Shown here one piece after another: positions 24,623 to 45,600 of a stretch of 64,000 nt of DNA. The translations under genes were made by a program, and so were the position numbers. The stretch covers positions 213,580-277,579 of the forward strand of contig JAKNTW010000009.1 in the NCBI GenBank assembly GCA_022213955.1, written 5' to 3'. The number at the start of each line of letters is the position of its first letter. Position 1 is the stretch's first letter. The notes under the pieces were generated by a model. It saw only the letters and a program-made list of their open reading frames with translations. It made no database searches and was not told the DNA's origin. This stretch comes from Streptosporangium soli. GTDB taxonomy: Bacteria; Actinomycetota; Actinomycetes; Streptosporangiales; Streptosporangiaceae.

Positions 24623-25291
24623 ATGCACCATCATCACGTCAGAAACACCCCCCGTTGGGCGCTGCGTGCCCTGGCCCTGCTGTCGGCGGCCATGCTCGTC
24701 CTGATTCCCCTGGCCGACACCGCCACCGCGCACGGCTCGATCATCAACCCGGCGTCCCGCAACTACGGTTGCTGGAACCGCTGGGGCAGCGACTTCCAGA
24801 ACCCCACCATGGCGCAGCAGGACCCGATGTGCTGGCAGGCATGGCAGGACAACCCGAACGCCATGTGGAACTGGAACGGGCTCTACCGCAACAACGTCGG
24901 CGGCAACCATCAGGCGGCGATCCCGAACGGCCAGCTGTGCAGCGCCGGCCGGACCGAAGGCGGTCGCTACAACTCCCTGGACACCGTGGGCCTGTGGAAG
25001 ACGACGAACATCGGCACCAACTTCTCCGTGAACCTGTGGGACCAGGCCCTCCACGGCGCCGACTACTTCCGCGTCTACGTCACCCGGCAGGGCTTCAACC
25101 CCGCCACCCAGTCGCTGGGCTGGAACAACCTGGAGCTGGTCCGCGAGACCGGCAGATATGCCCCCACCCAGAACATCTCGATCGCCGCCAGTGCCCCGGG
25201 ACGCAGCGGACGCCACATCGTCTATACGATCTGGCAGGCCTCGCACATGGACCAGTCGTTCTACTTCTGCAGCGACGTGATCTTCAGCTGA
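24623..25291 (+). CDS. lytic polysaccharide monooxygenase, family AA10
   Basis: Signal peptide ends ...TATA|HGSIINP, giving an N-terminal His1 on the mature protein. AA10 signatures (NYGCWN, GxxQxC). No CBM. Confidence 0.9.
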   Translation: MHHHHVRNTPRWALRALALLSAAMLVLIPLADTATAHGSIINPASRNYGCWNRWGSDFQNPTMAQQDPMCWQAWQDNPNAMWNWNGLYRNNVGGNHQAAIPNGQLCSAGRTEGGRYNSLDTVGLWKTTNIGTNFSVNLWDQALHGADYFRVYVTRQGFNPATQSLGWNNLELVRETGRYAPTQNISIAASAPGRSGRHIVYTIWQASHMDQSFYFCSDVIFS

Positions 25292-25435
25292 GCCGCTGAG
25301 CCGTACGTCGCCGACCCCGCCGGATGCCGAGGGCGTCCGGCGGAGCCGTCCCGGGCCCGGCCGGGAGCCGGGTGGCGCGGGTCGTCATGCGGCCCCGGGA
25401 GATGCGGCCCGGGGCGATGGGATCGATGGCGGAGG

Positions 25436-25843
25436 CTACTGGAGGGGCGGGAAGACCGCGCCGGTGGCGGCCGTCATGAGGCACTGGTTGGAGAACTGCT
25501 GCCGGTAGAAGACCGGACGGCCGAACCAGTAGCCCTCCATGGTGGCCTCGACCGGGTCGTAGATCCGGGGGCACGGGTTCGGGTCGGGCTCGCGCTCTTC
25601 GAGATAGCCGTCGACGGCGTACAGATCGGCGCACGCCGCCCAGGGGTTCGGGTGGCTGCCGTCGTCCGGGCCGCAGGTCAGGGTCCAGTGGTTGTAATCC
25701 CCGGACAATCCCACCACCGTGAGCTCCAGCCGGCTCGCCGCCGTCTGGGCCTGCGCCGGGGCGGCTGAGGCTAACGCGGTGAGGGCCAGTGCGGCGGCGG
25801 TGACGGCGGCGGCGCGACGGGCGAACAGGCTGACTGCGAGCAT
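25436..25843 (-). CDS. subtilisin inhibitor-like (SSI) family protease inhibitor
   Basis: Trimmed to MLAVSLF with RBS gaaggagggg. Signal peptide. Two conserved disulfide Cys pairs (LTCGP...AACADL; NPCP...QC). Confidence 0.85.
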   Translation of the reverse strand: MLAVSLFARRAAAVTAAALALTALASAAPAQAQTAASRLELTVVGLSGDYNHWTLTCGPDDGSHPNPWAACADLYAVDGYLEEREPDPNPCPRIYDPVEATMEGYWFGRPVFYRQQFSNQCLMTAATGAVFPPLQ

Positions 25844-25865
25844 GGAGCCCCTCCTTCTGGCGGAC

Positions 25866-25895
25866 ACTTTAAGTAATCAAGCTACTACTTAAAGT
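25866..25895. promoter_or_regulatory. perfect 10-bp inverted repeat ACTTTAAGTA-N10-TACTTAAAGT in an AT-rich island upstream of the SSI gene (candidate operator)
   Basis: Located 20-50 bp upstream of the SSI start. The region 25868-26070 is unusually AT-rich for this genome. Confidence 0.4.
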
Positions 25896-25949
25896 TGTCC
25901 CGAGTGGAGAATTCTCTGTAAGAGCCATCGGCCTGAATTCAGTGGCCCG

Positions 25950-25990
25950 GCTTATATAAATAAATGCGGCCCGACACCCCGAACGGGGAG
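25950..25990 (-). terminator. candidate intrinsic terminator for the flotillin/ATPase operon
   Basis: Hairpin ccccgttcgggg followed on the - strand by auuuauuuauau. The stem is short, so confidence is low. Confidence 0.25.
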
Positions 25991-26073
25991 TATTCGACGA
26001 ATAGGCGCTCCACTGATTCGACAACGTCGAGTCGCTTTACCGGCCGATCAATACGAACGGACGCCGGAGGCGA

Positions 26074-29000
26074 TCACTCGCCGTGGGCGGGGTGGTTCGA
26101 GGCGGCTCGGGTGATGGCGGTCTCCACGGCGGCCACCCGGTCGGCCACCAGGCCGAGGGCGCCGACGGCCCGGGTCATCGGGTCGTCCTCGGCGCCGCCC
26201 AGGGCCTGGGCGCGGAGGTGGCCGGCCTTGACCTCGGCCCATCGGGCGGCCTGGGCGGGGGTGAGGGCGCCGCGGAGTTCGGCGAGTTTGAGGAGGTTGG
26301 CCTCGGCGCCCGTGGTCAGGGTCTGGGCCTCGCCCAGATAGTGATCGTCGATCAGGGCTTCGAGTTCGGCGTCGTTCATCACGGGGACGATCCGCTCGGC
26401 CAGCTTGTTCATGTTGCGGTAGGAGCCCTGGAGCTGGAAGCGGGGCTCCATCCTGGCGGAGTCGGCCTGGGCGGCCGAGGCGATGTAGGCGCGGTTGTTG
26501 GCGAGCACGACCCGCTGCACCCGGAGGACCTTGCGCAGGACGGACAGGACCTGCTCCAGCTCGACCGTGGAGTAGGGGTGGGCGAGCTGGTCGGGGCGCA
26601 CCGAGTCGTCGCCCGCGGCGAGCCGTACGAGGCGGTCGATGTCGCCTCGGTCCCGGGTCGAGAGGGGGGCCAGGACCGGGTTGGAGGTGAGGGCGTTCTC
26701 CACGTAGCTGAGGGCGAAGACGTCGTCCCGGCCGGAGAGCACGTCGCCGAGGTTCCAGACGTCGGCGCGGTTGGCGAGCATGTCGGGGATCTGGAAGCGC
26801 CGGCCGGCCTCGGTGTAGGGGTTGCCCGCCATGCAGACGGCGAAGCGCTTGCCGCGCAGGTCGTAGGTGCGGGTGCCGCCGTCCCACACGCCCTCCATCC
26901 GGCGCTGGGCGTCGCAGAGGGAGATGAACTTCTGCAGCAACTCGGGGGAGGTGTGCTGGATGTCGTCGAGGTAGAGCAGCACGTTGTTGCCCATCTCCAG
27001 GGCGAAGGAGATCTTCTCGATCTCCTGGCGTGCGGTCGCGTTGGGGGCGTCCGCGGGATCGACGGAGGTGACGTCGTGGCCGAGGGCGGGGCCGTTGATC
27101 TTGACGAACACCAGGCCGAGACGGTTGGCGACGTACTCCATGAGCGTGGTCTTGCCGTATCCCGGGGGTGAGATGAGCAGCAGCAGGCCCATCTGGTCCG
27201 TCCGCTTGGCGTCACCCGCCGCGCCGAGCTGTTTGGCCAGGTTGTCGCCGATCAGCGGGAGGTAGACCTCGTCGAGGAGGCGGTTGCGGACGAAGGCGCT
27301 CATCACCTTCGGCTGGTACTCGGGCAGCCGGAGCCGTTGTCGCTCCGCGTTCACCAGGGCGGTGCGCCGCCGCTGGTAGCCGCGGTAGGCGGGGATCCGT
27401 TCCGTCCGGAAGACGCGGGTTCTGGCGAGGGTCTCGTCCAGGCGGAGGTCCAGGGCGCGTTCGTTGATCCGGGGATGCGCGCCGAGGAGCCCTTCGACGG
27501 TCGTCTCCAGGGTCGCCGCGGAGTCGTGGCGGGGAAGGTCGCCGCACAGCTGCAGGGCGACCGCTTCGGGCAGTTCCGCGGATCCCGCGTCGAACGAGCC
27601 GAGCCACGCCTCCGCGAGCTGACGGCGCGCGCCGAGATCGTCGCCGAGCGCCCGCAGGTCGTCCTCGTACTCCTCGATCCGGCCGGCGCCGAGGGACTTC
27701 CGGAACCGCTCCAGCAGATCCCTGGCCGCCGCGCTGGTGACGAAGCCGCCCGGGGTGGCCAGCTCCTCCGCCAGATACTCGCCCGCCAGCGGGGTCTCCA
27801 CCCGGAGGAAGCCGGTGACGGCCGCGGCCAACTCGGCGTGCAGGGCGGCCAGGGCGGAGGTGGGGCCGAACGTGGCGCGGGCGCGGGCGAGCGAGGCGGC
27901 CCGGGTGGCCCATGCCGTACGGCGGGCCTCGTCTGTGCCGTGCGCCCAGAAGAGCTGGGCGGCGGCGCGGGCCGACGGCGGGTAACGCAGCAGGCCGGCG
28001 GTGGCGTGCAGGCGGAGCAGCGCGTCGAGGATCGCGGCGGCGTCGTGGTCGTGGACGCCACGTTCGTAGCCCTCGTCGTACCGGCTCCCGGCGGCGGCTC
28101 GCACGATCTCCAGCAGCCCGTTCTCGGTCACCGCCGCCTCGTGCAGCGCGTCGAGGCCGAGCCCGGCTCCTGTCCCCGCGCCTGTCCCTGCGCCGGACCC
28201 GGCTCCTGACCCCGCGCCGGATTCGGCCTCGGCGAGGATCGCGGCGGCGAGGTGTTCGGCGCGGTAGACGGCGGCGGTCTCCGAGACGAGGAGCTGATCC
28301 CAGAAGGGACGGGTCTCCTCGAAGGTCGCGTCGCGGACCGGGGCGCGGTAGTCGGTGCCGGTGATCGCGTAGACCATCGTGCCGTCGTGGGGGACCAGGG
28401 TCAGGTCGATCGACTGGGTGTTGACCGCGAAGTGGTGCCGGCCGAGCCGGATGGTCTCGCCGCCCGCGCCGTACAGGTCGAGGCGGTCCCGGAGGGTACG
28501 GCCCGCCTCCTGGCGGGCGGCCTTGACGCGGCCTTCGAGCTCCTCGGCGCGGACCTGGTCGCCCAGCTCGCGCAGTTCCGCGGCGACCGAGTGGAGCTTG
28601 GCCACCATCGGGTCGGCCGCGAAGTAGGTGTTGACGTCGTCGAGCGACCCCAGGGTGGCGATCCTGCGCCGCACGCTGCCCAGGATGCGGTCGGCGGAGT
28701 CGGCGAGGCGGTCCGCACGGCGGGCCCGATCGTCGAGCAACGCCTGCTTGCGGGAGGAGAACGCCTCGTAGACGTCCTCCCGCTTGGTGGTCAGCTCGGC
28801 GAGGAACTCGTCGAACTCGGTGAACCGGGACTCCAGGTTCTCCAGTTGCAGGAGCAGCCGGCCGAGCTGGTCGTCGCAGCGGTCGGGGGTGTCGGCGACG
28901 GCGAGGGCGCCGGTCACGGCCTGGCCGATCAGCGCGAACTCGGCGGCGAACCCGGCGCGGCCCTCGACGGCCAGCAGTTCTCTGCGGCGGGCGTCCACGG

Positions 29001-30999
29001 TGGCCCTGGCGCGGTTCACGCCGCCGAGGACCTCGCCGACGCGTTCGAGGATGGCTGTGCGCACGGTGGCGTCGGCGATGTCCAGGGTGCCGACGACCTC
29101 GGTGACGATCTCCAGGCCCTCGGCCTGCTCGGCGAGCCGCTCCCGCACGGGCCCGGCCCCGGCGACGTTGACGATGGCCTCAGCCTGGGCGAGCAGCCCG
29201 TCGACCTCGGTGTGGTAGCCGGTGAAGGCGTCCTCGCCCTGCAGGAACGCGACCGCCCGCTGCCCGGTGGACGTCACCTCGTCCGCCAGCGAGGAGGCGA
29301 GCGCGTCGATCGCGGCCAGGTCGACGTAGCGCAGCTCGCGGAGGGTCACCAGGCGGCCCTGGGCCCGGCGCAGTTCGGCGAGCCTGCGCACCCAGGCGTC
29401 CGCCGAGCGCGGTGTCTCGCCGCGCGCCTGCCGCACCAGGGAGGTGACCTGCGCGGCGGCCTCCTCCAGGGCGGCGGCGGCCTGGGCGGTGAGCGACTGG
29501 ACCTTCTCGAACTCGTCGAGGACCTGCTCGGCGGTCGCCCGCACCGCGGCGAGCGGATCGCGCAGCTCGTGCTCCGCCAGCCAGTGGTAGGAGTCGGACA
29601 CCCGGGCGCAGGCCGCGATCAGCGCCTCGAACACCGGCACGGACGGCGCCATCTCGCCGACCATCCTGGCCACCGACAGGCACTCGGAGATGCCGCGCAC
29701 CAACTCGGCGTTGCCGACGCGTTCCAGCGGGCCGGTGCCGACGGGCTGGGCGGCGGCGTAGACGTCGGAGAGGTACGGCGTCTGCCAGACCTGCATGGGA
29801 TGGACCCGGGTCGGCTCCTCGGAGACCGCCCGGAAGACGACCAGCGTGCCGTCGTCGAACAGCGAGTAGCCGTGGCACGGGATCGGCGTGGCGACCTCCT
29901 TGCGGATCACGTTGTACGGCAGCAGCAGCGTGCGCCCCTCGGCCCTGGCGTGGAAGACGTAGAGCACGTCCTCGCCGTTGGCGGACCGGATGACCCGCTC
30001 GAACTCCAGGCTGGCCACGTCGGTGTCGAAGGTCTTGGCGACGCCGGTGGACAGGTAGTAGCCGTCCGGGAAGATGATCCCCTGGTCCTCGGGGAGCCGC
30101 TGGCACGCCTGCCCGATGCCGTCCAGCCGTACGACGGCCTTGGTCCTGGTGTTGAAGACCAGGTGGCGCCATTCGGTCTCGTTGTAGGGGCGGATCCGCA
30201 GCAGGATCAGCGGGCCGACCCTCGCGTGGTGCACGTCGGCGTCGGCGAGGCTCTGCAGCGGTTCGGCGACCGGCTCGCGGTAGACGCCCTCGCCGGTCTC
30301 CGTGTTGTTCTCGATCTTGATGGTGAGGTCGCCGCCGACGGTCTCCACGAACAGCTCGCCGGCGATGGAGATGTGCGGGTGGCGGCCGAGCACGTGGTCG
30401 TCGCGGGTGGTCTCGGTCCACTCGAAGTCGTGTGTGGGCGGGAAGACGTGGTCGCGTTCGCCGCGGTTGTCGACGTAGGAGACCGAGCCGTCGGTGGCGA
30501 CCCGCCAGCGCAGCACCCGGATGTCCTTCGGGCCGGTCTGGAAGATCGCCAGCAGCAGGCCGTCGAGCCGGCGCAGCTGCAACAGCCGGGTCTCCCGGTA
30601 GTAGCGGTACAGCTCGGAGAAGTCGCGCTCGAACTGCGGGTCGTGCAGCAGTCCGGGCAGGTCGCCGTCGCCGTCGAAGCTGAAGGCGTCGCCGTCCCGG
30701 GTGAACCGGTGCAGCGAGAAGACGTCGTCGGTCGTCGTCTCCGGCTTCAGCCCGATGAACACGTTGTAGCCGAACAGCATGAGCCCGCCGACGGAGACGA
30801 TGTCGCGGGGCACGCAGTTGTGCTCGGTGCGGATCCGCTCGGTGCCGACCAGCCGCAGCTCGGCGCCGCCGAAGACGTCGAGCCTGCGGGCGTTGAGCGC
30901 CTCGGCCCGCTCGGACAGCTCCGTGGCCTGCTCGGCCAGCCGGGCCCGGAGCACCTCGTAGGTGCCGGCGTCGAGCCCGGCGTCGGGTGCGGCCGTCAC
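26074..30999 (-). CDS. giant (1641 aa) multidomain AAA+ ATPase of unknown function, flotillin-associated
   Basis: GTG start overlaps the flotillin stop (GTGA). Walker A ISPPGYGKTTLMEY near 27150-27165. Internal (GSGAGS/GTGAG) linker. Long coiled-coil/helical middle region and a beta-rich N-terminal ~450 aa. Confidence 0.85.
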   Translation of the reverse strand: MTAAPDAGLDAGTYEVLRARLAEQATELSERAEALNARRLDVFGGAELRLVGTERIRTEHNCVPRDIVSVGGLMLFGYNVFIGLKPETTTDDVFSLHRFTRDGDAFSFDGDGDLPGLLHDPQFERDFSELYRYYRETRLLQLRRLDGLLLAIFQTGPKDIRVLRWRVATDGSVSYVDNRGERDHVFPPTHDFEWTETTRDDHVLGRHPHISIAGELFVETVGGDLTIKIENNTETGEGVYREPVAEPLQSLADADVHHARVGPLILLRIRPYNETEWRHLVFNTRTKAVVRLDGIGQACQRLPEDQGIIFPDGYYLSTGVAKTFDTDVASLEFERVIRSANGEDVLYVFHARAEGRTLLLPYNVIRKEVATPIPCHGYSLFDDGTLVVFRAVSEEPTRVHPMQVWQTPYLSDVYAAAQPVGTGPLERVGNAELVRGISECLSVARMVGEMAPSVPVFEALIAACARVSDSYHWLAEHELRDPLAAVRATAEQVLDEFEKVQSLTAQAAAALEEAAAQVTSLVRQARGETPRSADAWVRRLAELRRAQGRLVTLRELRYVDLAAIDALASSLADEVTSTGQRAVAFLQGEDAFTGYHTEVDGLLAQAEAIVNVAGAGPVRERLAEQAEGLEIVTEVVGTLDIADATVRTAILERVGEVLGGVNRARATVDARRRELLAVEGRAGFAAEFALIGQAVTGALAVADTPDRCDDQLGRLLLQLENLESRFTEFDEFLAELTTKREDVYEAFSSRKQALLDDRARRADRLADSADRILGSVRRRIATLGSLDDVNTYFAADPMVAKLHSVAAELRELGDQVRAEELEGRVKAARQEAGRTLRDRLDLYGAGGETIRLGRHHFAVNTQSIDLTLVPHDGTMVYAITGTDYRAPVRDATFEETRPFWDQLLVSETAAVYRAEHLAAAILAEAESGAGSGAGSGAGTGAGTGAGLGLDALHEAAVTENGLLEIVRAAAGSRYDEGYERGVHDHDAAAILDALLRLHATAGLLRYPPSARAAAQLFWAHGTDEARRTAWATRAASLARARATFGPTSALAALHAELAAAVTGFLRVETPLAGEYLAEELATPGGFVTSAAARDLLERFRKSLGAGRIEEYEDDLRALGDDLGARRQLAEAWLGSFDAGSAELPEAVALQLCGDLPRHDSAATLETTVEGLLGAHPRINERALDLRLDETLARTRVFRTERIPAYRGYQRRRTALVNAERQRLRLPEYQPKVMSAFVRNRLLDEVYLPLIGDNLAKQLGAAGDAKRTDQMGLLLLISPPGYGKTTLMEYVANRLGLVFVKINGPALGHDVTSVDPADAPNATARQEIEKISFALEMGNNVLLYLDDIQHTSPELLQKFISLCDAQRRMEGVWDGGTRTYDLRGKRFAVCMAGNPYTEAGRRFQIPDMLANRADVWNLGDVLSGRDDVFALSYVENALTSNPVLAPLSTRDRGDIDRLVRLAAGDDSVRPDQLAHPYSTVELEQVLSVLRKVLRVQRVVLANNRAYIASAAQADSARMEPRFQLQGSYRNMNKLAERIVPVMNDAELEALIDDHYLGEAQTLTTGAEANLLKLAELRGALTPAQAARWAEVKAGHLRAQALGGAEDDPMTRAVGALGLVADRVAAVETAITRAASNHPAHGE

Positions 31000-33005
31000 T
31001 GCTTCGCGGCGGTCAGCGCGGCGACGGGCGACTCGGCGACGCCGAGATGCTGTGCGGTCTCCAGAAGCTGCCGCATCTTGTCCTCGTCGGGCCCGCCCGC
31101 CTTGATCAGCTTGACCAGCAGCGCGGACAGCGTCAGGTCGCGCACCCCGGCGGAGTCCACCGACCGCAGCAGCTGGGCCAGGTCCGCGCCCAGGTGCGCG
31201 TCCCCGTTGAGGTACGGCTTGGCCAGGGCGCCGGCGACGTCGGAGTGCTGGATGAAGCCGTCGACGCTCTTCCCGGCGGAGATGGAGTTCACCAGCCGGT
31301 CGAAGAAGATGCCGTCCCCGCCGACGATGTCGATCTTGGCCTTCTCCAGCCCGGTGGCCAGCACGGTGGCCTGCGCCTGGGCCACGTCCCGCCGTACGTT
31401 GACCTCGGCGAGCCTGATCTCCTTCTCCGCGTCCAGCCGGAGGCGGTACTCCTCGTGGGTGCGGGTGGCGTCGTCGAGCGCGGCCATCGCGGCGGCCTTC
31501 TCGGTGAGGCCCTCGGCCTCCGCCTTGAGCTTCTCGCCGATCGCGGCGGCGGCGACCAGTGCCTTCTCCCGCTCGACGACGGCCTCGGCCCTGCCGACCC
31601 GCTCGATGGCCACCGCGTCGCGCTCGCGGACCTGCACCTCGGCCAGGCCGGTCGCCGCGGCCTCCGCCTGGGCGCCCTCGGCGAGCCTGATCTTCGCGCG
31701 GGTGTCCAGCTCGGCGGCCTGCTGGCGGGCCTCGGCGAGGACCAGTGCCTCACGCGCCTTGTGCTTGGCCGACGTCTCCGCGGCCTCGGCCGCCTTGATG
31801 TCCTTGACCAGGCCCTCCTGCGCCTCGGCCTCGGCCTGGATCACGATGGCCTGGCGGGTGCGCTCGGCCTCCTCGACGACCCGCAGGCGCTTGATGTTCT
31901 CCTCCTGCTCGGCGACCGTCTTCTCCACGGCGATCCGCTCGCGGATCACCTCGGCGATCGACCGCTTCTCCCCTTCGAGCTCCTTGTCCTTGGAGATCCG
32001 GGACAGCTCGGTCTCGCGTTCCCTGGAGATGACCTCCAGCATCCGGTCCTTTTCGATCCGCTCGGTCTCGATCGCGATGACCCGCTCGCGGTTCTTCTCC
32101 GCGACGGCGATCTCCCTGGCCTGGTTCTCCTGCTGGATGCCGAGCTGCTCGTCGGTGCGGAGGTCGGCCGCGCGCGCCTTGAGCCGCTCCTCGGCCCTGA
32201 CCTTGGCGGTCTCGGCCTCCTCGCGGGCCCGCATGGTCTCGATCTCGCGCTTCTGCTTGGTCTCGGCGTCGGCCTGCCGCCGTTCCAGCTCCAGGATGGC
32301 CTCCCTCGCGTCGACGTTCTGGCGGGTGATCTCCTTCTCCTCGTGGCGGCGGAACTCGTTGGTGCGGACGTTCTCGCTCGCGGTGAGTTCGGTGATCTTG
32401 CGGATGCCCTGCGCGTCGAGGATGTTGGCGGGGTCGAGCTGTGACATCGGGGTCTGCTCGAGGAAGTCGATCGCCGCGTCCTCAAGGCTGTAGCCGTTGA
32501 GGTCGGTGCCGATGACCCGGATGATCTGGTCGCGGAACTCGTCGCGCTGGGTGTAGAGGTCGACGAAGTCGAGCTGCTTGCCGACGGTCTTCAGCGCCTC
32601 GGAGAACTTCGCGTTGAACAGCTCCTGCAGCGTCGACTCGTCGCTGGCCCTGGCGGTGCCGATGGCCTGGGCCACCTTGATCACGTCCTCCACGGTCTTG
32701 TTGACCCGGACGAAGAAGGTGATGCGGATGTCGGCCCTGATGTTGTCCTTGCAGATCAGTCCCTCGTGGCCGGACCGGTTGATCTCGATTGTCTTGACCG
32801 AGATGTCCATGATCTCGGCCCGGTGCACCACCGGCAACACGATCTTCCCGGTGAACGTCACGTCCACCTTGTTGACCTTCGAGACGATCAGCGCCTTACC
32901 TTGTTCGACTTTGCGGAACAGGCGGCTGATCACGAACAGCAGGCCGATGACGATGATGAGGACGACGGCGAGCAGAATGCCGAACCCGGTGGAGATGACG
33001 TCCAT
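30996..33005 (-). CDS. flotillin/SPFH (band 7) family protein, YqiK-like
   Basis: N-terminal TM segment plus SPFH domain, then a long E/A/R-rich coiled coil typical of bacterial flotillins. 669 aa. Confidence 0.9.
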   Translation of the reverse strand: MDVISTGFGILLAVVLIIVIGLLFVISRLFRKVEQGKALIVSKVNKVDVTFTGKIVLPVVHRAEIMDISVKTIEINRSGHEGLICKDNIRADIRITFFVRVNKTVEDVIKVAQAIGTARASDESTLQELFNAKFSEALKTVGKQLDFVDLYTQRDEFRDQIIRVIGTDLNGYSLEDAAIDFLEQTPMSQLDPANILDAQGIRKITELTASENVRTNEFRRHEEKEITRQNVDAREAILELERRQADAETKQKREIETMRAREEAETAKVRAEERLKARAADLRTDEQLGIQQENQAREIAVAEKNRERVIAIETERIEKDRMLEVISRERETELSRISKDKELEGEKRSIAEVIRERIAVEKTVAEQEENIKRLRVVEEAERTRQAIVIQAEAEAQEGLVKDIKAAEAAETSAKHKAREALVLAEARQQAAELDTRAKIRLAEGAQAEAAATGLAEVQVRERDAVAIERVGRAEAVVEREKALVAAAAIGEKLKAEAEGLTEKAAAMAALDDATRTHEEYRLRLDAEKEIRLAEVNVRRDVAQAQATVLATGLEKAKIDIVGGDGIFFDRLVNSISAGKSVDGFIQHSDVAGALAKPYLNGDAHLGADLAQLLRSVDSAGVRDLTLSALLVKLIKAGGPDEDKMRQLLETAQHLGVAESPVAALTAAKQ

Positions 33006-33014
33006 CAGAGGTCC

Positions 33015-33617
33015 TTAGGTGGAAGGTCGGTGAGGATCGAGCGCGGCGTCGTACGGCATGACCCAGAAGTACTCGCCGTCGGCGTGGTAATCGAAGATCA
33101 GGGCGCTGCTGCCGGCACTCAGCGGGTCCGTGCCGTTCTGGCGGACCTGGATCACGGCGGAGGAGCCGTCCGCGGCGGTGACCTCGGCCTGGCCGAAGTC
33201 GGCGCTGACGCTGCGCGTCCTGATGACGCACATCCGGCCGATGAAGTCGTTGCGGGAGGGCGGCTGTTCCTCGGGGAGCAGGCGGCGCACCGGGAGCACC
33301 AGGAGACGGGTGCCCAGCCAGGCGACCAGCAGGGCGACGGCGAGCACGGCGAGCCGCGCCGGGGTGCCGTCGGTGAACGCGCCGCCCGCGAGGCTGGTGA
33401 ACCAGGCCAGCGCGACCATCAGCGACAGCACGACGGTGACCGGCATCCCACCGATTCCGAGCCCGGTCAGGAGCCCCGAGGGCCCGTCGTCGGGATCGAG
33501 CGCGTCCAGTCCCAGTCCGCCTGCGAGCACCAGCACCCAGTAGCCGATGACGACCAGCAGGAGAAAGCTAAACAGAACGGTCGGGAACTCGAGCGTGGCG
33601 TCGAGAAACTCCCCCAT
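33015..33617 (-). CDS. NfeD-like/YqiJ-type membrane protein with C-terminal OB-fold
   Basis: Three or four TM helices followed by a beta domain (FIGRMCVIRTRSVSADFGQAEV). Positioned as the usual upstream partner of flotillin. Confidence 0.75.
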   Translation of the reverse strand: MGEFLDATLEFPTVLFSFLLLVVIGYWVLVLAGGLGLDALDPDDGPSGLLTGLGIGGMPVTVVLSLMVALAWFTSLAGGAFTDGTPARLAVLAVALLVAWLGTRLLVLPVRRLLPEEQPPSRNDFIGRMCVIRTRSVSADFGQAEVTAADGSSAVIQVRQNGTDPLSAGSSALIFDYHADGEYFWVMPYDAALDPHRPST

Positions 33618-33688
33618 CGAAATACGTCGTCCTCCCCGCTACCGCCCGGCCGTGGCCCCCCAAGGCCAGAGCTAGTAGTTGATCGCGA

Positions 33689-33717
33689 AATATAGCGGGA
33701 TAAAGCACGACATTCAA
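33689..33717 (-). promoter_or_regulatory. sigma70/HrdB-like promoter TTGAAT-17-TATATT for the nfeD-flotillin-ATPase operon
   Basis: Read on the - strand: TTGAATgtcgtgctttatcccgcTATATT, about 70 nt upstream of the nfeD start. Sits in an AT-rich intergenic region. Confidence 0.4.
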
Positions 33718-33825
33718 TGACTTGGTGAGCTATTACGCATACTCAAGCCGCCCGAAGATCGCAGTAAACCCGACCTGGTCAGGCACCCGCCGCCCCTTCG
33801 CCGCCGATATGACGGGCCGACGCCC

Positions 33826-35301
33826 CTACCCGCGTCTGATCGGACGGCCGGGCATCGCCGACAACACCAGCTCACCGTCGCGGACGACCGGCTCGCCCCC
33901 GACGAACACGTGGGCATACCCCGTGGAGGGCAGCGTGCTCGCCTCGTACGTCGCCCGGTCGCCGACCGCACCCGGGTCGAAGACGACCAGGTCGGCGTCG
34001 CATCCGGCCTGCAGTCTGCCCTTACGGCGCATCGCGGGCACCGACGGCTCCAGCACCCGGGCCGCCAGCAGCCCGCACCGGGCGACGGCGTCGAGCAGGG
34101 TCAACGCCTCGGTCTCCCTGACATAGCGGCGCAGGACCTTGGAGAACGTGCCCGCCGTACGGGGATGGGTGACGGCCGTGGCGGGCAGCGGCCAGGCCGT
34201 CTCGTCGGGCTCGCCGGCCGTCCAGGTCAGCGGCATGGCGTCGGAACCGATCACCGTGCTCTCCGCGAGCAGGGCGCGGTCGAGGAAGGCCAGGTCGGCG
34301 GGTGACTCCTCGTCGAGGGTGTGGATGAAGACGAGGCCGCCCGGGTCGGCCGCCCTGATCTCCTCCAGCCGTGCGGCGTCGGCCGGCCGCTCGCCGGTGC
34401 GCGCGTAGACGAGCGCGCTCGGCCCGATGCCCAGGGCGTGCAGCCGGTCGGCGGCCAGGAAATGGGCCCCGATGCCGGTCATGCCCGCGCCGTAGGGGTA
34501 CGCCTCCGTGGTGACCCGGCCGCCCTCGGCGCGGACCCGGTCGACGAGCGAGAGGACCCGGTCGACCTGACGGACCGAGGTGCTGTTGATGTGGCAATAG
34601 TGCATGTGGGCGCCGGTCTCCGCGGCGGCGCGCACCAACTCCTGCGCCCCGTCGATCGGCACCCCCGGCACCCCCTCGACCAGCGGGCGGGCATGGGTGT
34701 AGGTCGGCACCCCCGCCGCGGCGGCGAGCGCGGCCACCGCGAGGTACTCGGCCGGGTCGACCTCGGGGGCGTAGCCCATCAGGACGCCGATGCCCAGCGC
34801 GCCGTCGGCCAGTTCGGCGCGCAGCAGGGCGAGCAGGGCGTCCAGCTCGCGGGCGCTCGCCGGGGCCTGCCAGGCGCGGGCCGAGATGTGGCCGAGCGCC
34901 CCCGTGAAGCCGCCGCCGGGGGCGATGCCCGCCACGGCGGACATCCGCGCCTGGGTCCAGGAGGCGGAGAAGCCGTAGTTGAGCGGCCTGCCCTCGGCCG
35001 CGGCCCTGCCGTACGCCTTGGCCACCGGGATGACGCCGGCCTCCAGCTCCAGCACGGTGGTGACGCCGTCGAGCGCCTGGAGGCGGTGCCCGGCCACGGT
35101 GTCGGAGTGGCTGTGCAGGTCGATCCAGCCGGGAGCGACGGCGAGACCGGTGACGTCGAGGACGCGGCGTCCGGCCAGCGGCTCGGCGGAGACAGCGGTG
35201 ATGACTCCCGCGCTGATCCCGACGTCCGCGACGGCGTCGAGGCCGGTCTCGGGGTCGAGTGCCCGGCCACCGCGGAGGACCAGGTCGGGCATGTCGGCCA
35301 C
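33826..35301 (-). CDS. N-acyl-D-amino-acid deacylase (D-aminoacylase) family amidohydrolase
   Basis: Metal-binding HSHSD motif (GWIDLHSHSD). 491-aa amidohydrolase-fold protein. Confidence 0.85.
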   Translation of the reverse strand: MADMPDLVLRGGRALDPETGLDAVADVGISAGVITAVSAEPLAGRRVLDVTGLAVAPGWIDLHSHSDTVAGHRLQALDGVTTVLELEAGVIPVAKAYGRAAAEGRPLNYGFSASWTQARMSAVAGIAPGGGFTGALGHISARAWQAPASARELDALLALLRAELADGALGIGVLMGYAPEVDPAEYLAVAALAAAAGVPTYTHARPLVEGVPGVPIDGAQELVRAAAETGAHMHYCHINSTSVRQVDRVLSLVDRVRAEGGRVTTEAYPYGAGMTGIGAHFLAADRLHALGIGPSALVYARTGERPADAARLEEIRAADPGGLVFIHTLDEESPADLAFLDRALLAESTVIGSDAMPLTWTAGEPDETAWPLPATAVTHPRTAGTFSKVLRRYVRETEALTLLDAVARCGLLAARVLEPSVPAMRRKGRLQAGCDADLVVFDPGAVGDRATYEASTLPSTGYAHVFVGGEPVVRDGELVLSAMPGRPIRRG

Positions 35302-37765: not shown

Positions 37766-40492
37766 TTACGGGGCTCGGAGGTAGGCCACGCCGAAGGCGG
37801 AGTCGGCGGGGGTGCCCTCCGGGGAGTGGCAGTAGACGTCCACGGTCAGCTGCGGTGGGGCGCTGTAGGAGTTGAAAACGCCCAGGTGGCAGTACTGGCC
37901 GGGGGTGTTGGTGGTGACCTGGGCGCTGTCGATCGGCTTGCCGATGCCGGTGTGGACGACCCGGTACCACCCCTTCGCCAGCCGGGTGACTGTCGGGGAT
38001 CCGCCGTCGCTGCTGTAGGAGCGGCGTTGGTCGATCACCGGGCCGGCCGGGTCGCCGGTGGTCGTGACGTAGGCGGCGGGCGCCGACGGGTCGCGGTGAA
38101 GTCCCCGGCCCTGCACGTAGGAGAGCACCCAGGGGGAGTCGACGCGCCGCGCCGTGGATTCCCCGCTCACGGCGTAACAGCCGACGGCCACCTCCAGGGT
38201 GTCACCGGCGACGGTCGTGCCCTCCGGGTGACAGCGGGCCGGCCCGCCCGAGCCGTACGGCGTGACCTGCGGGTAGCCGCTGTCCTCGGTGAACGCGGCG
38301 CCTTTGAGGACGACCTTGTAACGGCCCGGACCCTCGTGGCGGACGTGGTTGACCTGGCCGGCGGAGTTGTAGGTGCCGTCGTTGCGCACGGGGGTGAGGC
38401 TGCCGGTTCCGCCGGGCGGGTTGTAGCGGACCGTGGCGTACGGCGTGTCGCCCGGGGCGGCCGGCGCGGCGAAGAACACGGTGAACCACCAGTCGATCGG
38501 TGCCCCGGTGTGGTCGAAGCACCGCACGCGGATCACCTCGTCCGGTACGGCGGGCTCCTGACCGGCCACCGCGCACGTCCGCCCCCGATAGGTCGTGCGA
38601 TACGCCGTCACGTGCGCCACTCCGGTCGCGGAGGCGATGTCGGGCAGCCGGACGGTGTACTCGCCGGTGCCCGTATGGGTCACCGTCGCCCGGTGTGCGG
38701 CGTTGGCGGGGTCACGCCGTCCGGTGGTCCACTGGAAGGTGGCGTCCAGCGCGGTCTCGGCGCCCAGCGGGGCGGTCGCCTTGTCCATGTAGGCGAAACC
38801 CCAGCGGGGAGTGGCCGACGCGGTGGGCGCGGCCGCCGCCACCATGGCGTCGATCAGCTCCGCGACGACGCGCTTGCCCTGCTCCTCGGTGAGTCCCGGC
38901 TCCGGGGCGCTCGGCGGCGGGCTGCCGGCGTCGGGGGAGACGCCGACCCGGAAGGTGATGTTCTCCCAGTCGTCCGAGCCGGTCAACGGCGTGCTGTCAG
39001 GCTCGGTGCCGCCCAGCAGGTTGACGGAGACCTCGCGGGTGGGATCGGGATCCGGGACGCCGGCGGAACTCCAGTTCCAGTCGAGGCCGCGCCTGGCGTC
39101 GCCGACGCGCAGGACGCGAGCCGGGTCCCGCCACGCCGCCGTCAGGCCGGTACTCGCCCCGATGCCCGCACTCTCCACGAGCCGCGTCATCTGGAGATCG
39201 TCCAGTTTCTCGCGCGAGTAGTCGATGGCGCTCACCGCCTCCGCCGTCTCCACCCAGGAGTCCTCGGCGGTGTCGCCGGGCATGTCGCGCAGGGCGGCCA
39301 GCCAGGCGCTGTAGTCGGGCAGGCCGGTGAGCTGGTACTGGTAGCTCAGGACGGACAAGTAGTTCGGCTTGTAGTTGGTGTTGTCGCCGCCGCCGTGCAG
39401 GAGACCGAGCGCGTGTCCCAGTTCGTGGACGAAGGTGCCGCTCTGCGTTCGGTCGGTGATCTCGTCCCAGGCTCCCAGGGACACGATGAAGTCGATCGCG
39501 TAGCCGTCCACGGGGGCGTAGCCGCTGCTGGTGGACTCGTCGTGCTTGTATCCCCAGAGGTTGTAGAAGAACAGGTTCTGCCGGTGCGGCGGGAAGTGGG
39601 CCGCCCGGTGCCGGTCGAAGCCGGTCCGCCCGTCCTCCCCCTGCTCGCGCAGTGGCCGCCGGCGCTCGGCGGGGGTGACCGGGATGGCGTCCGAGAGGTC
39701 GACCAGCAGTTGGATGCCGGGCTCGGGCCTGGGGCCGTACGGGCACTGTGCCGCCGCGTTGACCGGCGCGTTGTCGAACATGTGGCGCGCCTCGTCCATC
39801 GCGGTCGCCGACGGCCGGTCGGACGCGGTCCCGTCGTCGAGCCAGTCGATCTCGACGGCCGTCGTCTTCCGGCACGGGTCCGCGGCCCGGTCGGGGAGCC
39901 AGGTGTCGAGCGTGCCGTCCGCCCGCCGGATGCCGAAGAGTTCCACCCGGTCGGTCAGGCCGTCCCCGTCGGTGTCGGGATCCGGCCGGCCCTCGTTGGT
40001 GTTCCACGACTGGTCGGTGTTCTTGTAGAAGCGGTGCAGCGGTTCGGCGGGGTCCGGGGAGGCTCGGTCGTAGTACACGGCTCCGGTGTCACGGTCGGTG
40101 ACGCGCAGCGCCTGCAGGTTCCAGTTGTCCGCCGAGATATCGGGCTTGGTCGTCTCGTGGGTGAATGTGAAGCCGTCGAGCAGGTGCCTCGCCGGCACGC
40201 ACGGCGTCAGGTGGGTGTCCCAGGTGAAGGTGGCGTTCCGGGTGTCGCCCGTGCCTCCCCGGTGGAAGGGCTGGGGCGTGGCGTCGGGTGTGCCGTCGCC
40301 GTCCCCGTCCTCGAAGAGGAGGGTTCCGCCGCCGAAGGTGATCCTCTCGGTGGACGTGTCGTGCAGGCCGTCGTCGCCGGTGGTGACGGTGAACGTCACC
40401 CGGCACACCTCGCCGGCGGCGGCCCGCGCGGGACCGGCCGGAACGGCCGACACCCCCGCCACCGTGAGTGCCGCCAGGAGGACGAGGGCCAT
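37766..40492 (-). CDS. secreted zinc metalloprotease (HExxH), multidomain, ~900 aa
   Basis: Signal peptide. VHELGHALGLLHGG zinc site. Long C-terminal beta-rich region with repeated Cys-containing modules. An alternative upstream start exists at 40582. Confidence 0.8.
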   Translation of the reverse strand: MALVLLAALTVAGVSAVPAGPARAAAGEVCRVTFTVTTGDDGLHDTSTERITFGGGTLLFEDGDGDGTPDATPQPFHRGGTGDTRNATFTWDTHLTPCVPARHLLDGFTFTHETTKPDISADNWNLQALRVTDRDTGAVYYDRASPDPAEPLHRFYKNTDQSWNTNEGRPDPDTDGDGLTDRVELFGIRRADGTLDTWLPDRAADPCRKTTAVEIDWLDDGTASDRPSATAMDEARHMFDNAPVNAAAQCPYGPRPEPGIQLLVDLSDAIPVTPAERRRPLREQGEDGRTGFDRHRAAHFPPHRQNLFFYNLWGYKHDESTSSGYAPVDGYAIDFIVSLGAWDEITDRTQSGTFVHELGHALGLLHGGGDNTNYKPNYLSVLSYQYQLTGLPDYSAWLAALRDMPGDTAEDSWVETAEAVSAIDYSREKLDDLQMTRLVESAGIGASTGLTAAWRDPARVLRVGDARRGLDWNWSSAGVPDPDPTREVSVNLLGGTEPDSTPLTGSDDWENITFRVGVSPDAGSPPPSAPEPGLTEEQGKRVVAELIDAMVAAAAPTASATPRWGFAYMDKATAPLGAETALDATFQWTTGRRDPANAAHRATVTHTGTGEYTVRLPDIASATGVAHVTAYRTTYRGRTCAVAGQEPAVPDEVIRVRCFDHTGAPIDWWFTVFFAAPAAPGDTPYATVRYNPPGGTGSLTPVRNDGTYNSAGQVNHVRHEGPGRYKVVLKGAAFTEDSGYPQVTPYGSGGPARCHPEGTTVAGDTLEVAVGCYAVSGESTARRVDSPWVLSYVQGRGLHRDPSAPAAYVTTTGDPAGPVIDQRRSYSSDGGSPTVTRLAKGWYRVVHTGIGKPIDSAQVTTNTPGQYCHLGVFNSYSAPPQLTVDVYCHSPEGTPADSAFGVAYLRAP

Positions 40493-40884
40493 CAGCGCGG
40501 GCAGCCGCCGGCCGCGGGTACGGCTCCGCGGTCCGGGGCCGCGCGTGGGCCCGCTGTGATCTTCGTCGGTCGCTGATCGCAATTCGGCTCCCTCTTTCGA
40601 ATGAGTCGCAGGTCTGGCCGATGTCAGGTCGACGGTGGGGCAGCGCTGCGATGCCGGACAACGAATCGCGAATCATCCGTACAAGTCCGGACACGACATC
40701 CGGGCCTTTCCGGCCTTCCGGGCGCTCCTGGCCTGTAACTATTCGTGGTCTGTCGACGACGTACAGGTGTGCCGGCCTGTCGTCGCCCCCGCCTCGCCCT
40801 GAGCCGGTGCCCCACGACACCCGGGCGGGGCGCGTCCCCGCGTGACCTCCACCCGCCGGCCCGGACGCCCTGACAGGAACTCAT

Positions 40885-42676: not shown

Positions 42677-45490
42677 TCAACTGGACAGGGCGGGCAGGGG
42701 CTGTTCGGTCCAGATGCATTTGCCGTCGGCAGTGAAGCGGGTGCCCCAGCGCTGTGAGAGGGCGGCGACGAGCTGGAGGCCGCGGCCGCCTTCGTCGGTT
42801 TCCGCGGCGCGGCGGATCCTGGGCGTGGTCTGGCTGCCGTCGGAGACCTCGCACACGAGGGTGCGGCTGCGCAGCAACCGGAGCCGGAGCGGGCCCTTGG
42901 CGTGGCGGACGACGTTGCCGACCAGCTCACTGGCCACCAGTTCGGTGGTCATCACCAGGTCTTCCAGGTGCCAGTGGGCGAGTTGCTCGCGTACATGCCC
43001 GCGGGCCTCACCGGCGGCGATGGGGTCGTCGGGCAGCGACCAGGAAGCGATGTTCTCGGCGGCCAGCCGGTGCGCACGGGTGATGAGCAGCGCGGCGTCG
43101 TCGGCTATCGGTTGGTGCGCGCCGGGCAGCATGGCGCCGGTCACGGCGTCACACAGGTGATCCAGCTCACTCCTGTGATGATCGGAGAGGAGCCGAGTCA
43201 GCTCGGCCATGCCGTCGTCCAAGTCACGGGTGGGCGACTCGACCAGGCCGTCGGTGTAGAGCACGAAGAGGGCTCGGTCCGGCAGGTGGAGCTCGGCCGT
43301 GGTGAAAGGCGGCTCGGCGGCGCCCAGCGGCGGGTCGGGAGTCGTTCGCGGGACTCGTACCGTGCCGTCGGGGTGGACGATGGCGGGTGGGGGGTGTCCG
43401 GCGCTGACGAAGGCGCACTCGCCGGTGGTGGGGTCGTACACGGCGTACAGGCAGGTGACGTAGGTGTCCTCGCCGAGGCCGTTGACCAGGTCGTTGAGGT
43501 GAGCGAGGAGTTCGTCGGGCGGCAGTTCGAGGTCCGCGAGGGCGCGCACGGCCGTGCGCAGGCGGCCCATGGTGGCGGCCTGGGACAGGCCGTGGCCCAT
43601 GACGTCGCCGATGACCAGGGCAACCCGCTCCGCGGAGAGCGGGATGATGTCGTACCAGTCTCCGCCAAGTTCGGTGCCGCGGGCCGGCAGGTAGCGGGCG
43701 GCTGCGGTGATGCTGGGCAGGGACGGCAGGTCGCGGGGCAGGAGCAGGCGTTGCAGCTCCTGGGCGCGCATGTGTTCCGCGTCGTACATGCGGGCCCGCG
43801 CCAGGGCCTGCGCGATCAGGCCGCTGAACGCCGTGAGCAGCGTGCGCTCTTCGCCGGTGAACCGGCGCGGAAGGTCGAAGGAGATCACGCAACAGCCCCT
43901 GGGGTGTCCGGGGACCACCAGCGGGAGCAGTACCCAGGCGTTCATGCCCGAGTCGGCCATGAGGGTGTCGGTGTCCGGGCATCGCGCATGGTCTTCGATG
44001 AAGGCGGGCAGGCCAGTCTGGAGCACGTCGGTGAGGATGGAATGGTCGGTGGCCCTGCATTGCTCGATGCGGCCGAGAACGTCGGGCGGGTAGCCTACGG
44101 CTCCCACGACGTGCAGGCGGTCGTGCTCAACAGTGACGATCACCAGGCCGGCGGCGGCGAAGAGCGGCAGAACCCGCTTGGTGATGACCCGCACCATGTC
44201 TTCGGCGGTCACCGCCTCGCTGAGGGTGGAGGTCAGCTCTTGAATCCAGGCGGCCCGTTCCGCGGCGGCGTGCTCAGCGGCGATGCGCTCCGCGTCGCGG
44301 ATTCGCTTCTCGGTGAAGTCCGCGAGGTAGAGGGTCAGGCCGTCCGGCACCGGCACCAGGCGCACGTGGTACCACCGCTGGTCGGTCGGCCACCGCACGT
44401 CGAAGCTGGCGGGCGCCCGCTCGGCGGCGGCTCGAAAGCACCGTGACCGCAGGTCGGGCACATCGCCCGCGGGCAGGTCCCACAGCACCCGGCCGTGCAG
44501 GTCGCTGGATCCCAGGAGGCGTTCGGCGCCGAGATTGACGAAGATGATCTGCCAGTCGCGGTCCACCGCGAGAAAGGCGTCGCTCATGTACTGCAGCGCC
44601 CGGCCGGCCGACTCCCTTGCAAGACGGCTCTCGGTGGTGTCCCAGACCGTGCCGACCATGCGTACCGGCTCACCGTCCGCGTCCAGGATGAGGCAGCCCC
44701 GCGCGTGCATCCAGCCCGTGGTGCCGTCGGGGCGGCGGGCGCGGTACTCGACCTCATAGAGGCTCTTGGCGCGAATGGCCTCCTCGGTCGCGGCCATCAC
44801 CCTGGGCAGGTCCTGCGGGTGGACGATGTTCACCCAAGTGTCGATGGTGTAGGGGGCGGTGCCGGGGTCGATACCCATCATGGTCAGAGCGGGTTCGTCC
44901 CATTGCAGGTCGCCGGTCCGGATGTTCCAGTCCCAGGATCCGACTTTGACCGCTTTCAACGCCTGCTGGAGATGGGAGTCGGCCTGCCAGAGGCGGGGCG
45001 TGCCGCCCGGCTCCGGGGTGGTGGTCTCGAGTCGTTCGGAAAGCCAGAAGGCCAATGACCGGAGGAAGGCCTGCCGGTCGCCCGATAGTTCGGCGGGCCC
45101 GTCGGTCAGGACGGACATGACGCCAAGGGACGCGTCGGAGCCGTCGAGCGGGACGGCCGTCAGCATCACCGTGCGGGACGGGCCGGCGGCGAGCGGGACG
45201 GGGCGGCAGGTAAGTGCCCTGGCGTCCAGCGCGTGGGAGATCACCTCGCGGACGTCGCCGCCGGTATGCAGCTCCGCCGGGGGCAGTCCGGAGGCGACCA
45301 CCAGGCGCAGCTCACAGCTGCCGGTGGGACCGCGCCAATGCACCATCCCGCTCAGCGCGTGCACATCGGCGAGCGCCTGGTCCAGCGCGTACTGCAGGAC
45401 CTCAATGTCGCTGAGCCCGGCGCACGCGACCGCGAGTATGCGAAGCCGTTCCTCTTCCGAGGCGGCAGCGGAGGTTTCTTTCGTCCCCAT
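42677..45490 (-). CDS. multi-sensor PAS/GAF SpoIIE-type PP2C phosphatase with C-terminal HATPase_c (RsbW-like) domain
   Basis: PP2C segment GGDWYDIIPLSAERVALVIGDVMGHGLSQAATMGRL. Two GAF-like domains and a PAS domain upstream. C-terminal anti-sigma-kinase-like ATPase ELVGNVVRHAKGPL. Confidence 0.85.
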   Translation of the reverse strand: MGTKETSAAASEEERLRILAVACAGLSDIEVLQYALDQALADVHALSGMVHWRGPTGSCELRLVVASGLPPAELHTGGDVREVISHALDARALTCRPVPLAAGPSRTVMLTAVPLDGSDASLGVMSVLTDGPAELSGDRQAFLRSLAFWLSERLETTTPEPGGTPRLWQADSHLQQALKAVKVGSWDWNIRTGDLQWDEPALTMMGIDPGTAPYTIDTWVNIVHPQDLPRVMAATEEAIRAKSLYEVEYRARRPDGTTGWMHARGCLILDADGEPVRMVGTVWDTTESRLARESAGRALQYMSDAFLAVDRDWQIIFVNLGAERLLGSSDLHGRVLWDLPAGDVPDLRSRCFRAAAERAPASFDVRWPTDQRWYHVRLVPVPDGLTLYLADFTEKRIRDAERIAAEHAAAERAAWIQELTSTLSEAVTAEDMVRVITKRVLPLFAAAGLVIVTVEHDRLHVVGAVGYPPDVLGRIEQCRATDHSILTDVLQTGLPAFIEDHARCPDTDTLMADSGMNAWVLLPLVVPGHPRGCCVISFDLPRRFTGEERTLLTAFSGLIAQALARARMYDAEHMRAQELQRLLLPRDLPSLPSITAAARYLPARGTELGGDWYDIIPLSAERVALVIGDVMGHGLSQAATMGRLRTAVRALADLELPPDELLAHLNDLVNGLGEDTYVTCLYAVYDPTTGECAFVSAGHPPPAIVHPDGTVRVPRTTPDPPLGAAEPPFTTAELHLPDRALFVLYTDGLVESPTRDLDDGMAELTRLLSDHHRSELDHLCDAVTGAMLPGAHQPIADDAALLITRAHRLAAENIASWSLPDDPIAAGEARGHVREQLAHWHLEDLVMTTELVASELVGNVVRHAKGPLRLRLLRSRTLVCEVSDGSQTTPRIRRAAETDEGGRGLQLVAALSQRWGTRFTADGKCIWTEQPLPALSS

Positions 45491-45600
45491 CACATCGCCC
45501 CCTCCTCACGTTACCCCGGTGCCTGACCGGCTCCTACGGGCGATCGGCGGACCAGGCACAGCGCCGTCGGCGGCAAGGTCGAGGCCGACGGCGCCGCAGA

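Follow-up and report, generated by a model that had tools for sequence, protein, structure and literature searches.

A conserved YqiJ–flotillin–DUF3686 ATPase operon in Streptosporangium soli and its possible role in the remodelling of flotillin scaffolds

The stretch of Streptosporangium soli DNA considered here (64,000 nucleotides of contig JAKNTW010000009.1, assembly GCA_022213955.1; hereafter the window) carries on its minus strand three consecutive, co-directional open reading frames (ORFs) of 200 aa, 669 aa and 1641 aa. They encode a YqiJ/YuaF-type membrane protein, a YqiK-family flotillin and a large soluble ATPase, an arrangement that had been proposed in an earlier note on this DNA and that is borne out by the ORFs found (Table 1). 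The locus is an ordinary orthologue, in abbreviated form, of a module known from in silico work and never characterised experimentally. The function put forward for it, to which we give slightly less than an even chance, is that the ATPase acts as an ATP-driven remodeller of flotillin scaffolds at the cytoplasmic face of the membrane, tied to envelope stress.

The three genes are a translationally coupled operon. The stop codon of the flotillin gene and the GTG start codon of the ATPase gene share 4 nt (caGTGAcgg), in agreement with the GTGA coupling read in the earlier note, and the YqiJ-type gene is separated from the flotillin gene by a 9-nt gap, with AAGGA before the flotillin ATG. The window has a GC content of 70-75 %, and at such GC long ORFs arise by chance. 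All three ORFs have a GC content at third codon positions (GC3) of 0.91-0.97 with typical values at first and second positions (GC1/GC2), and each of the three proteins has thousands of homologues; thus they are real genes rather than chance ORFs. The opposite strand bears a 1413-aa ORF (28252..32493, plus strand), which is absent from the list of gene-like ORFs (criteria GC3 >0.82, GC2 <0.62). This ORF is read as a probable high-GC shadow ORF because it overlaps two genes, those of the ATPase and the flotillin, that are supported by homologues.

Upstream of the operon, the candidate promoter TTGAAT-17-TATATT is the sole sigma-70-like match in positions 25400-34000 (8.6 kb), for which shuffles predict 0.3 matches. 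The earlier note had called it near-consensus and placed it in an AT-rich island; the site itself stands, but it agrees with the consensus at 9 of 12 positions, for which the first term is generous, and the island is modest (GC 0.65 around the site vs ~0.72 nearby). Terminator-like hairpins in the region are no more numerous than in shuffles, and Rfam yielded no match to the operon or its leader.

The association of the ATPase with a flotillin extends far beyond this strain. Eighty genomic loci were collected, 77 of which had scorable upstream DNA, and in all 77 a flotillin gene lies directly upstream of the ATPase gene on the same strand; these include Myxococcus, Corallococcus, a deltaproteobacterial metagenome-assembled genome (MAG), a Clostridia-labelled MAG and a proteobacterial MAG. 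The triad is also found in Pseudoalteromonas, Chondrinema, a Hymenobacter plasmid and a Verrucomicrobiales MAG. In total, the tblastn survey places flotillin immediately upstream and on the same strand at 81 of 81 scorable loci, in Actinomycetota, Myxococcota, Gammaproteobacteria, Bacteroidota and Verrucomicrobiota; the earlier note had allowed that the linkage might be peculiar to this strain. The same layout is seen by annotation on a Deinococcus plasmid and on the Pseudomonas plasmid pQBR103. A YqiJ-like gene was detected in position at 68 of the 81 loci (tblastn E<=1e-5), and from locus to locus the identities that ATPase and flotillin show to their window counterparts rise and fall together (r = 0.89); for the YqiJ-like protein r = 0.84. 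No other neighbour of the triad is conserved across the taxa examined. Functional coupling is supported by the GTGA overlap, the adjacency at all scorable loci, the co-variation of ATPase and flotillin, and the lack of any other conserved neighbour.

The ATPase family is large, with 6775 clusters at 90 % identity passing E 1e-5, 784 clusters at 50 % identity for the N-terminal domain, and the gene in at least 589 GTDB species. The ATPase keeps 60-78 % identity between the sampled actinobacterial orders, which indicates strong selection on function, and identity declines as apparent taxonomic distance grows, the pattern that vertical inheritance would give. Some flanking genes recur in parts of the distribution. 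A divergent PucR-type regulator (GGDEF_2 + HTH_30) is located upstream in the three Streptomyces loci examined (L044/L056/L033, about 5300-7000), the matching ORF cluster is present at 31 of the 80 loci, and TrkA_N proteins are encoded downstream of the triad in both Streptomyces loci examined. A GGDEF-domain gene also lies just upstream of the Deinococcus triad (L087, 3580-5061), and one homologue of the 1641-aa protein (P0504) carries a C-terminal PilZ domain (residues 1757-1828); with the Streptomyces regulator, these are possible links to cyclic di-GMP or other regulation.

Two metagenomic gene calls join other sequences in frame to the N-terminus of the ATPase, and both were considered as fusions. 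P0335 (1449 aa), in which a flotillin C-terminus is joined to the ATPase, was rejected as a Rosetta-stone fusion since it is a single case, and P0322 (1345 aa), in which an NfeD1b_N ClpP-like domain is joined to DUF3686, was rejected for its Arg-rich linker of out-of-frame appearance. Both are probably frameshifts or gene-calling artefacts, and P0322 may point to a different gene arrangement in which an NfeD1b-type gene lies upstream. Separately, a second copy of flotillin plus ATPase is carried by Streptomyces plasmids of 550-560 kb; it is divergent, at ~50 % identity in the N-terminal domain. In the copy on the S. globosus plasmid (L088, NZ_CP030864.1 130717-148129) no YqiJ-like gene is annotated upstream, and 234 nt lie between the flotillin gene and a methyltransferase gene.

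The earlier note put the machine forward as a candidate undescribed one; this does not hold, given that the gene association was reported by comparative genomics in 2024. That study identified CesT/Tir–PspA operons with genes for YqiJ/YuaF, band-7/flotillin and β-propeller/coiled-coil/AAA+ proteins, and found abbreviated operons without the PspA dyad to be widely distributed; Dokdonia donghaensis IS97_2772 is an example listed in its supplement (Ravi et al., mSystems 2024, PMC11237479). The operon described there has the same three proteins, order and domain architectures as the window operon, whereas its core examples also contain the CesT/Tir–PspA dyad and a phospholipase D gene, both of which the window operon lacks; tblastn detected no PspA in the window. 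The paper reports neither experiments nor an analysis of the ATPase structure. A literature search found no experimental work on the YqiJ–flotillin–DUF3686 ATPase module, no mention of DUF3686 and no pairing of the term 'DNA repair ATPase' with flotillin.

The first two genes of the operon resemble the SPFH2/NfeD2 pairs yqiJ–yqiK of E. coli and yuaF–floT (yuaG) of B. subtilis (Hinderhofer et al., 2009, PMC2636767), in which, as in the window, a gene for a small protein with several transmembrane segments precedes the flotillin gene. However, no ATPase gene follows yqiK in the E. coli operon, where small-RNA and toxin genes are found instead. The window flotillin gave nothing significant in direct Pfam, NCBIfam and PDB sequence searches, and its identity was confirmed through the YqiK profile. 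A profile of 16 orthologues (A5) aligned with E. coli YqiK at 99.9 % hhalign probability (E 1.3e-31, 419 aligned columns). In addition, Band_7 matched 4 of the 16 orthologues (best E 1.5e-10), Flot (PF15975) matched one, and a protein of Streptosporangium sp. KLBMP 9127 (P0121) that is 100 % identical to the window flotillin bears the name 'flotillin family protein' from the NCBI annotation pipeline PGAP. The window flotillin has 669 aa vs 553 aa in YqiK; the two are homologous over ~420 residues, and the last ~200 fall outside the hhalign alignment. The stomatin-like protein StlP (SCO2834, PMC11920096) was considered as a Streptomyces counterpart and rejected, as it is a different protein.

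The bulk of the flotillin would be cytoplasmic by the positive-inside rule applied to its N-terminal transmembrane helix. Beyond the SPFH domain, the very long coiled coil of the earlier note corresponds to a charged helical stretch of ~350 residues, the length of which varies between phyla in the alignment. The C-terminal region contains four invariant residues (G562, G563, G578 and D582) and may provide a docking surface.

The 200-aa protein has three predicted transmembrane segments and a soluble C-terminal domain by hydropathy. In an hhalign comparison, its orthologue profile (A6) matched E. coli YqiJ with a probability of 75 % (E 2.6e-5), which is moderate support; BLASTP with YqiJ was collinear at 23 % identity, and one orthologue showed a faint match to YqiJ_N (PF21001). 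The earlier note had described a YqiJ/NfeD-like membrane protein with an OB fold. The YqiJ type and the membrane location stand, but the protein itself gave no match in Pfam or NCBIfam even at E<=10, the NfeD C-terminal OB-fold domain included, and a PDB profile search was empty. The label 'NfeD-like' is based on the relationship to YqiJ/YuaF.

The architecture of the ATPase was studied using two AlphaFold2 models built from alignments of 42 sequences (mean predicted local distance difference test score, pLDDT, 85 each), and residue conservation was scored over 45 diverse homologues, down to 31 % identity. The models bear out the predicted succession of a β-rich N-terminus, a long helical middle, a flexible linker and a C-terminal P-loop module, with the motifs where they had been read (GSGAG from residue 928, ISPPGYGKTT at 1276 and LYLDDIQ at 1342). 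The N-terminal domain scores 738 bits with DUF3686 (cutoff 25), and AlphaFold2 places the strands of this all-β domain at residues 49-406. Foldseek relates it to β-propellers, namely WD40 proteins, the clathrin terminal domain, the prolyl-oligopeptidase propeller, PON1, IFT-A and Nup. The IFT-A, Nup and clathrin matches raised a 'protocoatomer-like' reading, which was rejected because their template modelling (TM) scores were 0.1-0.36 and because the helical part consists of very long bundled helices rather than an α-solenoid. The helical domain before the AAA+ module matches no known family; its invariant G981-x-H983-D-x-D986 motif could be a metal-binding or catalytic site.

Hydropathy revealed no transmembrane segment in the 1641-aa protein, NCBIfam and PDB searches returned P-loop-level matches only, and Pfam identified no protease, nuclease, toxin, other effector or DNA-binding domain. 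The protein is a full-length member of the DUF3686/DUF7902 family, shares 72-78 % identity with over 100 annotated proteins from actinobacteria, and does not differ structurally from that family, which PGAP names 'DNA repair ATPase'. The earlier note could assign it to no characterised system, and this agrees with the matches found, which comprise DUF3686, DUF7902 and a generic AAA+ core; the family to which it is homologous along its full length has been annotated but never functionally characterised.

Among solved structures, Foldseek (E from 3e-5) places the AAA+ module nearest to NorQ and CbbQ of the MoxR class, RuvB, MCM and ClpB, with TM scores of up to ~0.5, and 0.6 for a short RuvB fragment. 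Pfam gave weak matches at ~residues 1263-1396 to AAA (29 bits), AAA_5 (25.7 bits) and RuvB_N. AlphaFold2 predicts a β-hairpin (residues 1367-1380) between α3 and β4, before sensor 1, and the β2-α2 segment is predicted as coil and not as a clear helix-2 insert. N1393, R1411 and R1528 are invariant among the 45 homologues. By its position in the model N1393 is the predicted sensor 1; R1411 precedes β5, and R1528 belongs to the lid motif GSYRNM (G-S-x-R). We take R1411 to be the arginine finger and R1528 a MoxR-like sensor 2, by analogy with MoxR motifs. An active NTPase is plausible from these three residues together with the invariant Walker A motif and D1345/D1346. The likeness to the MoxR class and RuvB comprises the closest structures, R1411, GSYRNM and perhaps the predicted hairpin before sensor 1, whereas sequence similarity to the MoxR class is marginal, the Walker B motif is DD and not DE, and the 1230-residue N-terminal extension has no counterpart there. 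The VWA-domain partner gene of the MoxR class was found neither in the window flanks nor among conserved neighbours.

The proposed mechanism begins with the flotillin, which would be anchored by its single N-terminal transmembrane helix with its bulk in the cytoplasm and, together with the YqiJ-like protein, would form an SPFH scaffold or cage at the cytoplasmic side of the membrane. The ATPase, lacking a membrane anchor of its own, would be recruited to this scaffold through its propeller and rod. An AAA+ oligomer could then spend ATP on remodelling the scaffold by assembly, disassembly, reshaping or the release of held contents, and such remodelling may belong to the way the cell responds to stress on its envelope or membrane. 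The megadalton scale given in the earlier note presupposes a hexamer. A bolder version, which is tentative and rather unlikely as it stands, makes the DUF3686 protein a dedicated factor, the first of its kind, that assembles and disassembles bacterial flotillin cages with ATP and without proteolysis, comparable to Vps4 acting on ESCRT-III, in which the propeller and rod would read the state of the lattice and a MoxR-like ring would reshape it during membrane stress. To our knowledge, no energy source for building, resizing or dismantling bacterial flotillin assemblies has been identified so far. The operon is a candidate power source for the dynamics of flotillin scaffolds, and this is a testable hypothesis, given that the module is present in tractable organisms (Streptomyces, Myxococcus, Pseudomonas fluorescens pQBR103 and Vibrio).

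Several points weigh against the remodelling of flotillin scaffolds. A physical interaction between ATPase and flotillin and the ATPase activity itself are putative, and the data fit flotillin itself, flotillin clients or PspA as the substrate. The Walker B motif has an invariant Asp-Asp in place of the canonical Asp-Glu and thus lacks the catalytic Glu of canonical AAA+ proteins, so hydrolysis may be slow or switch-like. A classical threading mechanism is doubtful because the aromatic pore loop is missing after β2, where the sequence is KINGPALGH. No family for which a ligand is known was matched by the propeller or the rod. Furthermore, tblastn, an insensitive search for a protein as divergent as PspA, detected PspA beside one of 85 loci outside E. 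coli (L083); since PspA is undetected at nearly all loci, the link to stress rests on a minority of operons.

On the Hymenobacter plasmid, CesT_Tir and PspA_IM30 genes lie immediately upstream of the triad, and on pQBR103, a P. fluorescens megaplasmid (L086, NC_009444.1 84452-101873), the triad ends a ten-gene same-strand array in the order YjfI, PspA/IM30, rhomboid protease, DUF2491, DUF350, DUF1190, GspS (glutathionylspermidine-synthase-like) and triad. This array merges the two PspA operon classes of the 2024 study, and both loci reproduce and extend the CesT/Tir–PspA link reported there (PMC11237479). They also bear on a different account, in which the ATPase would be a Vps4-like remodeller of PspA/IM30 (ESCRT-III-type) polymers, with flotillin and YqiJ as the platform only and PspA mostly encoded elsewhere. 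That PspA/IM30 genes immediately precede the triad in two unrelated phyla argues for it, as do published reports that a B. subtilis SPFH protein recruits PspA to the membrane (PMC8581546, PMC9239133). It is weakened because the invariant partner is flotillin and not PspA, for which pQBR103 adds a second case to the single tblastn detection; moreover, the searches revealed no MIT domain, and the AAA+ module resembles MoxR/RuvB and not the classical Vps4 clade. We judge this account improbable.

An SPFH scaffold can also be paired with an AAA+ machine in protein quality control, as in HflK/C–FtsH, where an SPFH cage surrounds an AAA+ protease and which shares this logic and a link to membrane stress with the window system (PMC13220708). 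By analogy, the ATPase could be a client-directed unfoldase or extractor of membrane proteins within flotillin microdomains, possibly feeding a protease encoded elsewhere. In keeping with this, flotillin microdomains of S. aureus are reported to stabilise unfolded proteins (PMC11222466), and ClpB is among the structural neighbours of the AAA+ module. The window ATPase is unlike FtsH, however, in lacking a transmembrane anchor and an M41 protease domain, and the classical FtsH/Cdc48 clade is not the closest match to its AAA+ module; the predicted topology of the window system is cytoplasmic, whereas that of HflK/C–FtsH is periplasmic. An FtsH-like unfoldase is weakened by the missing anchor and protease domain and by the absence of an aromatic-hydrophobic-Gly pore loop; the Walker B motif without Glu and the lack of a conserved protease gene near the triad count against it as well. 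It seems to us a poor prospect, with a small but real chance of being correct.

The earlier note also raised a defence-type NTPase, that is, an anti-phage or conflict system in which a giant membrane-anchored NTPase serves as sensor or effector. Defence systems often include large NTPases that have membrane partners, and some copies are carried on megaplasmids (pQBR103, Hymenobacter, Deinococcus and Streptomyces). However, a search of PADLOC-DB 2.0 with the three proteins gave nothing significant; the best matches, both confined to short segments, were IetA (E 0.003, over 29 residues at the P-loop) and LmuB (E 0.009). The identity pattern is that of vertical inheritance with core-gene-like conservation, some of the Streptomyces loci share flanking genes, and the window flanks hold housekeeping or secreted-enzyme genes. 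Neither a nuclease nor a toxin or other effector domain was found, and the ATPase gene occurs on 13 of 72,556 plasmid records, most of which are chromids or mis-labelled chromosomes. The defence reading is disfavoured and very unlikely.

The database name raises a further possibility, that the protein is a DNA-repair ATPase and that its adjacency to flotillin is incidental or reflects membrane-tethered DNA processing. The PGAP and UniRef name 'DNA repair ATPase', the Pfam title of DUF3686 ('ATPase involved in DNA repair') and the place of RuvB among the closest AAA+ structures are in its favour. Against it, the literature as searched mentions neither DUF3686 nor the pairing of such an ATPase with flotillin, no DNA-binding or nuclease domain was found, and the obligate neighbours are membrane proteins. 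The RuvB likeness is generic to AAA+ proteins and common to NorQ, CbbQ and MCM, with an NCBIfam RuvB score of 23 bits vs a cutoff of 282 bits. The name probably arose from coiled-coil similarity to SbcC/SMC-type COGs, with which a weak LmuB match (residues 703-869) agrees, and it is probably misleading for genome annotation. A role in DNA repair is likewise disfavoured and has the slimmest chance of the accounts considered.

Table 1. Features of the operon and its products, with positions in the window and the basis of each assignment (AF2, AlphaFold2)
Feature	Position	Strand	Basis or remarks
Candidate sigma-70-like promoter TTGAAT-17-TATATT, ~70 nt upstream of YqiJ-type gene	33689..33717	(-)	Motif scan
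YqiJ/YuaF-type (NfeD2-like) membrane protein, 200 aa	33015..33617	(-)	Translation, hydropathy, profile match to YqiJ
YqiK-family flotillin (SPFH2), 669 aa	30996..33005	(-)	Profile match to YqiK
Flotillin N-terminal transmembrane helix, ~residues 8-27	32925..32984	(-)	Hydropathy; followed by R28/R31/K32
Flotillin SPFH/band-7 domain, ~residues 30-195	32421..32918	(-)	Aligns to YqiK SPFH; most conserved block of profile A5
Flotillin long charged helical region, ~residues 200-545	31371..32408	(-)	Composition: Pro-free, Gly-poor
Flotillin conserved C-terminal region, ~residues 546-669	30999..31370	(-)	...IDIVGGD..FFDR...GKSVDGF...
Soluble β-propeller/helical-rod/AAA+ ATPase, 1641 aa, ~180 kDa	26074..30999	(-)	Pfam, AF2, Foldseek
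ATPase long N-terminal helix, residues 13-43	30871..30963	(-)	AF2; motif G.YE..R.RL conserved family-wide
ATPase β-propeller = Pfam DUF3686 (PF12458), residues 27-472	29584..30921	(-)	E 3e-222
ATPase helical-bundle rod, residues 412-842	28474..29766	(-)	AF2; helices up to 58 residues
DUF7902 (PF25472), residues 590-674, inside rod	28978-29232	(-)	E 5e-30, 104 bits vs cutoff 26
ATPase small β domain, residues 849-887	28339..28455	(-)	AF2; G853, H855, F857, N860 conserved
ATPase Gly/Ser/Ala/Thr flexible linker, ~926-947	28159..28224	(-)	GSGAG starts at 928; pLDDT <50 at 930-940
ATPase helical pre-AAA domain, residues 949-1230	27310..28155	(-)	AF2; invariant G981-x-H983-D-x-D986
AAA+ module (α/β core + lid), residues 1240-1600, MoxR/RuvB-like	26200..27282	(-)	Foldseek, weak Pfam
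Walker A SPPGYGKTT, residues 1277-1285	27145..27171	(-)	1277-1284 invariant, T1285 nearly (45 homologues)
Walker B LLYLDD, residues 1341-1346	26962..26979	(-)	D1345, D1346 invariant (45 homologues)
Weak terminator-like hairpin, ~90 nt past ATPase stop codon	25969..25984	(-)	Hairpin scan; low confidence

The genes that flank the window operon (LPMO10, subtilisin inhibitor (SSI) and amidohydrolase) are unrelated to the triad. Downstream, an AT-rich spacer of 200 nt (25868-26073) separates the operon from the SSI gene (25436-25867, minus strand) and a secreted LPMO10 gene (24623-25291, plus strand), neither of which is conserved beside the triad elsewhere. Upstream of the operon, two minus-strand ORFs (37766-40582 and 42677-45493) are each exactly 938 aa in length and were considered as a related pair, which was rejected since their sequences are unrelated. 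One of them has no significant Pfam domain and shows weak traces of TSP3 and Peptidase_M66, and the other is a PAS-GAF-SpoIIE(PP2C)-HATPase_c_2 signalling protein.

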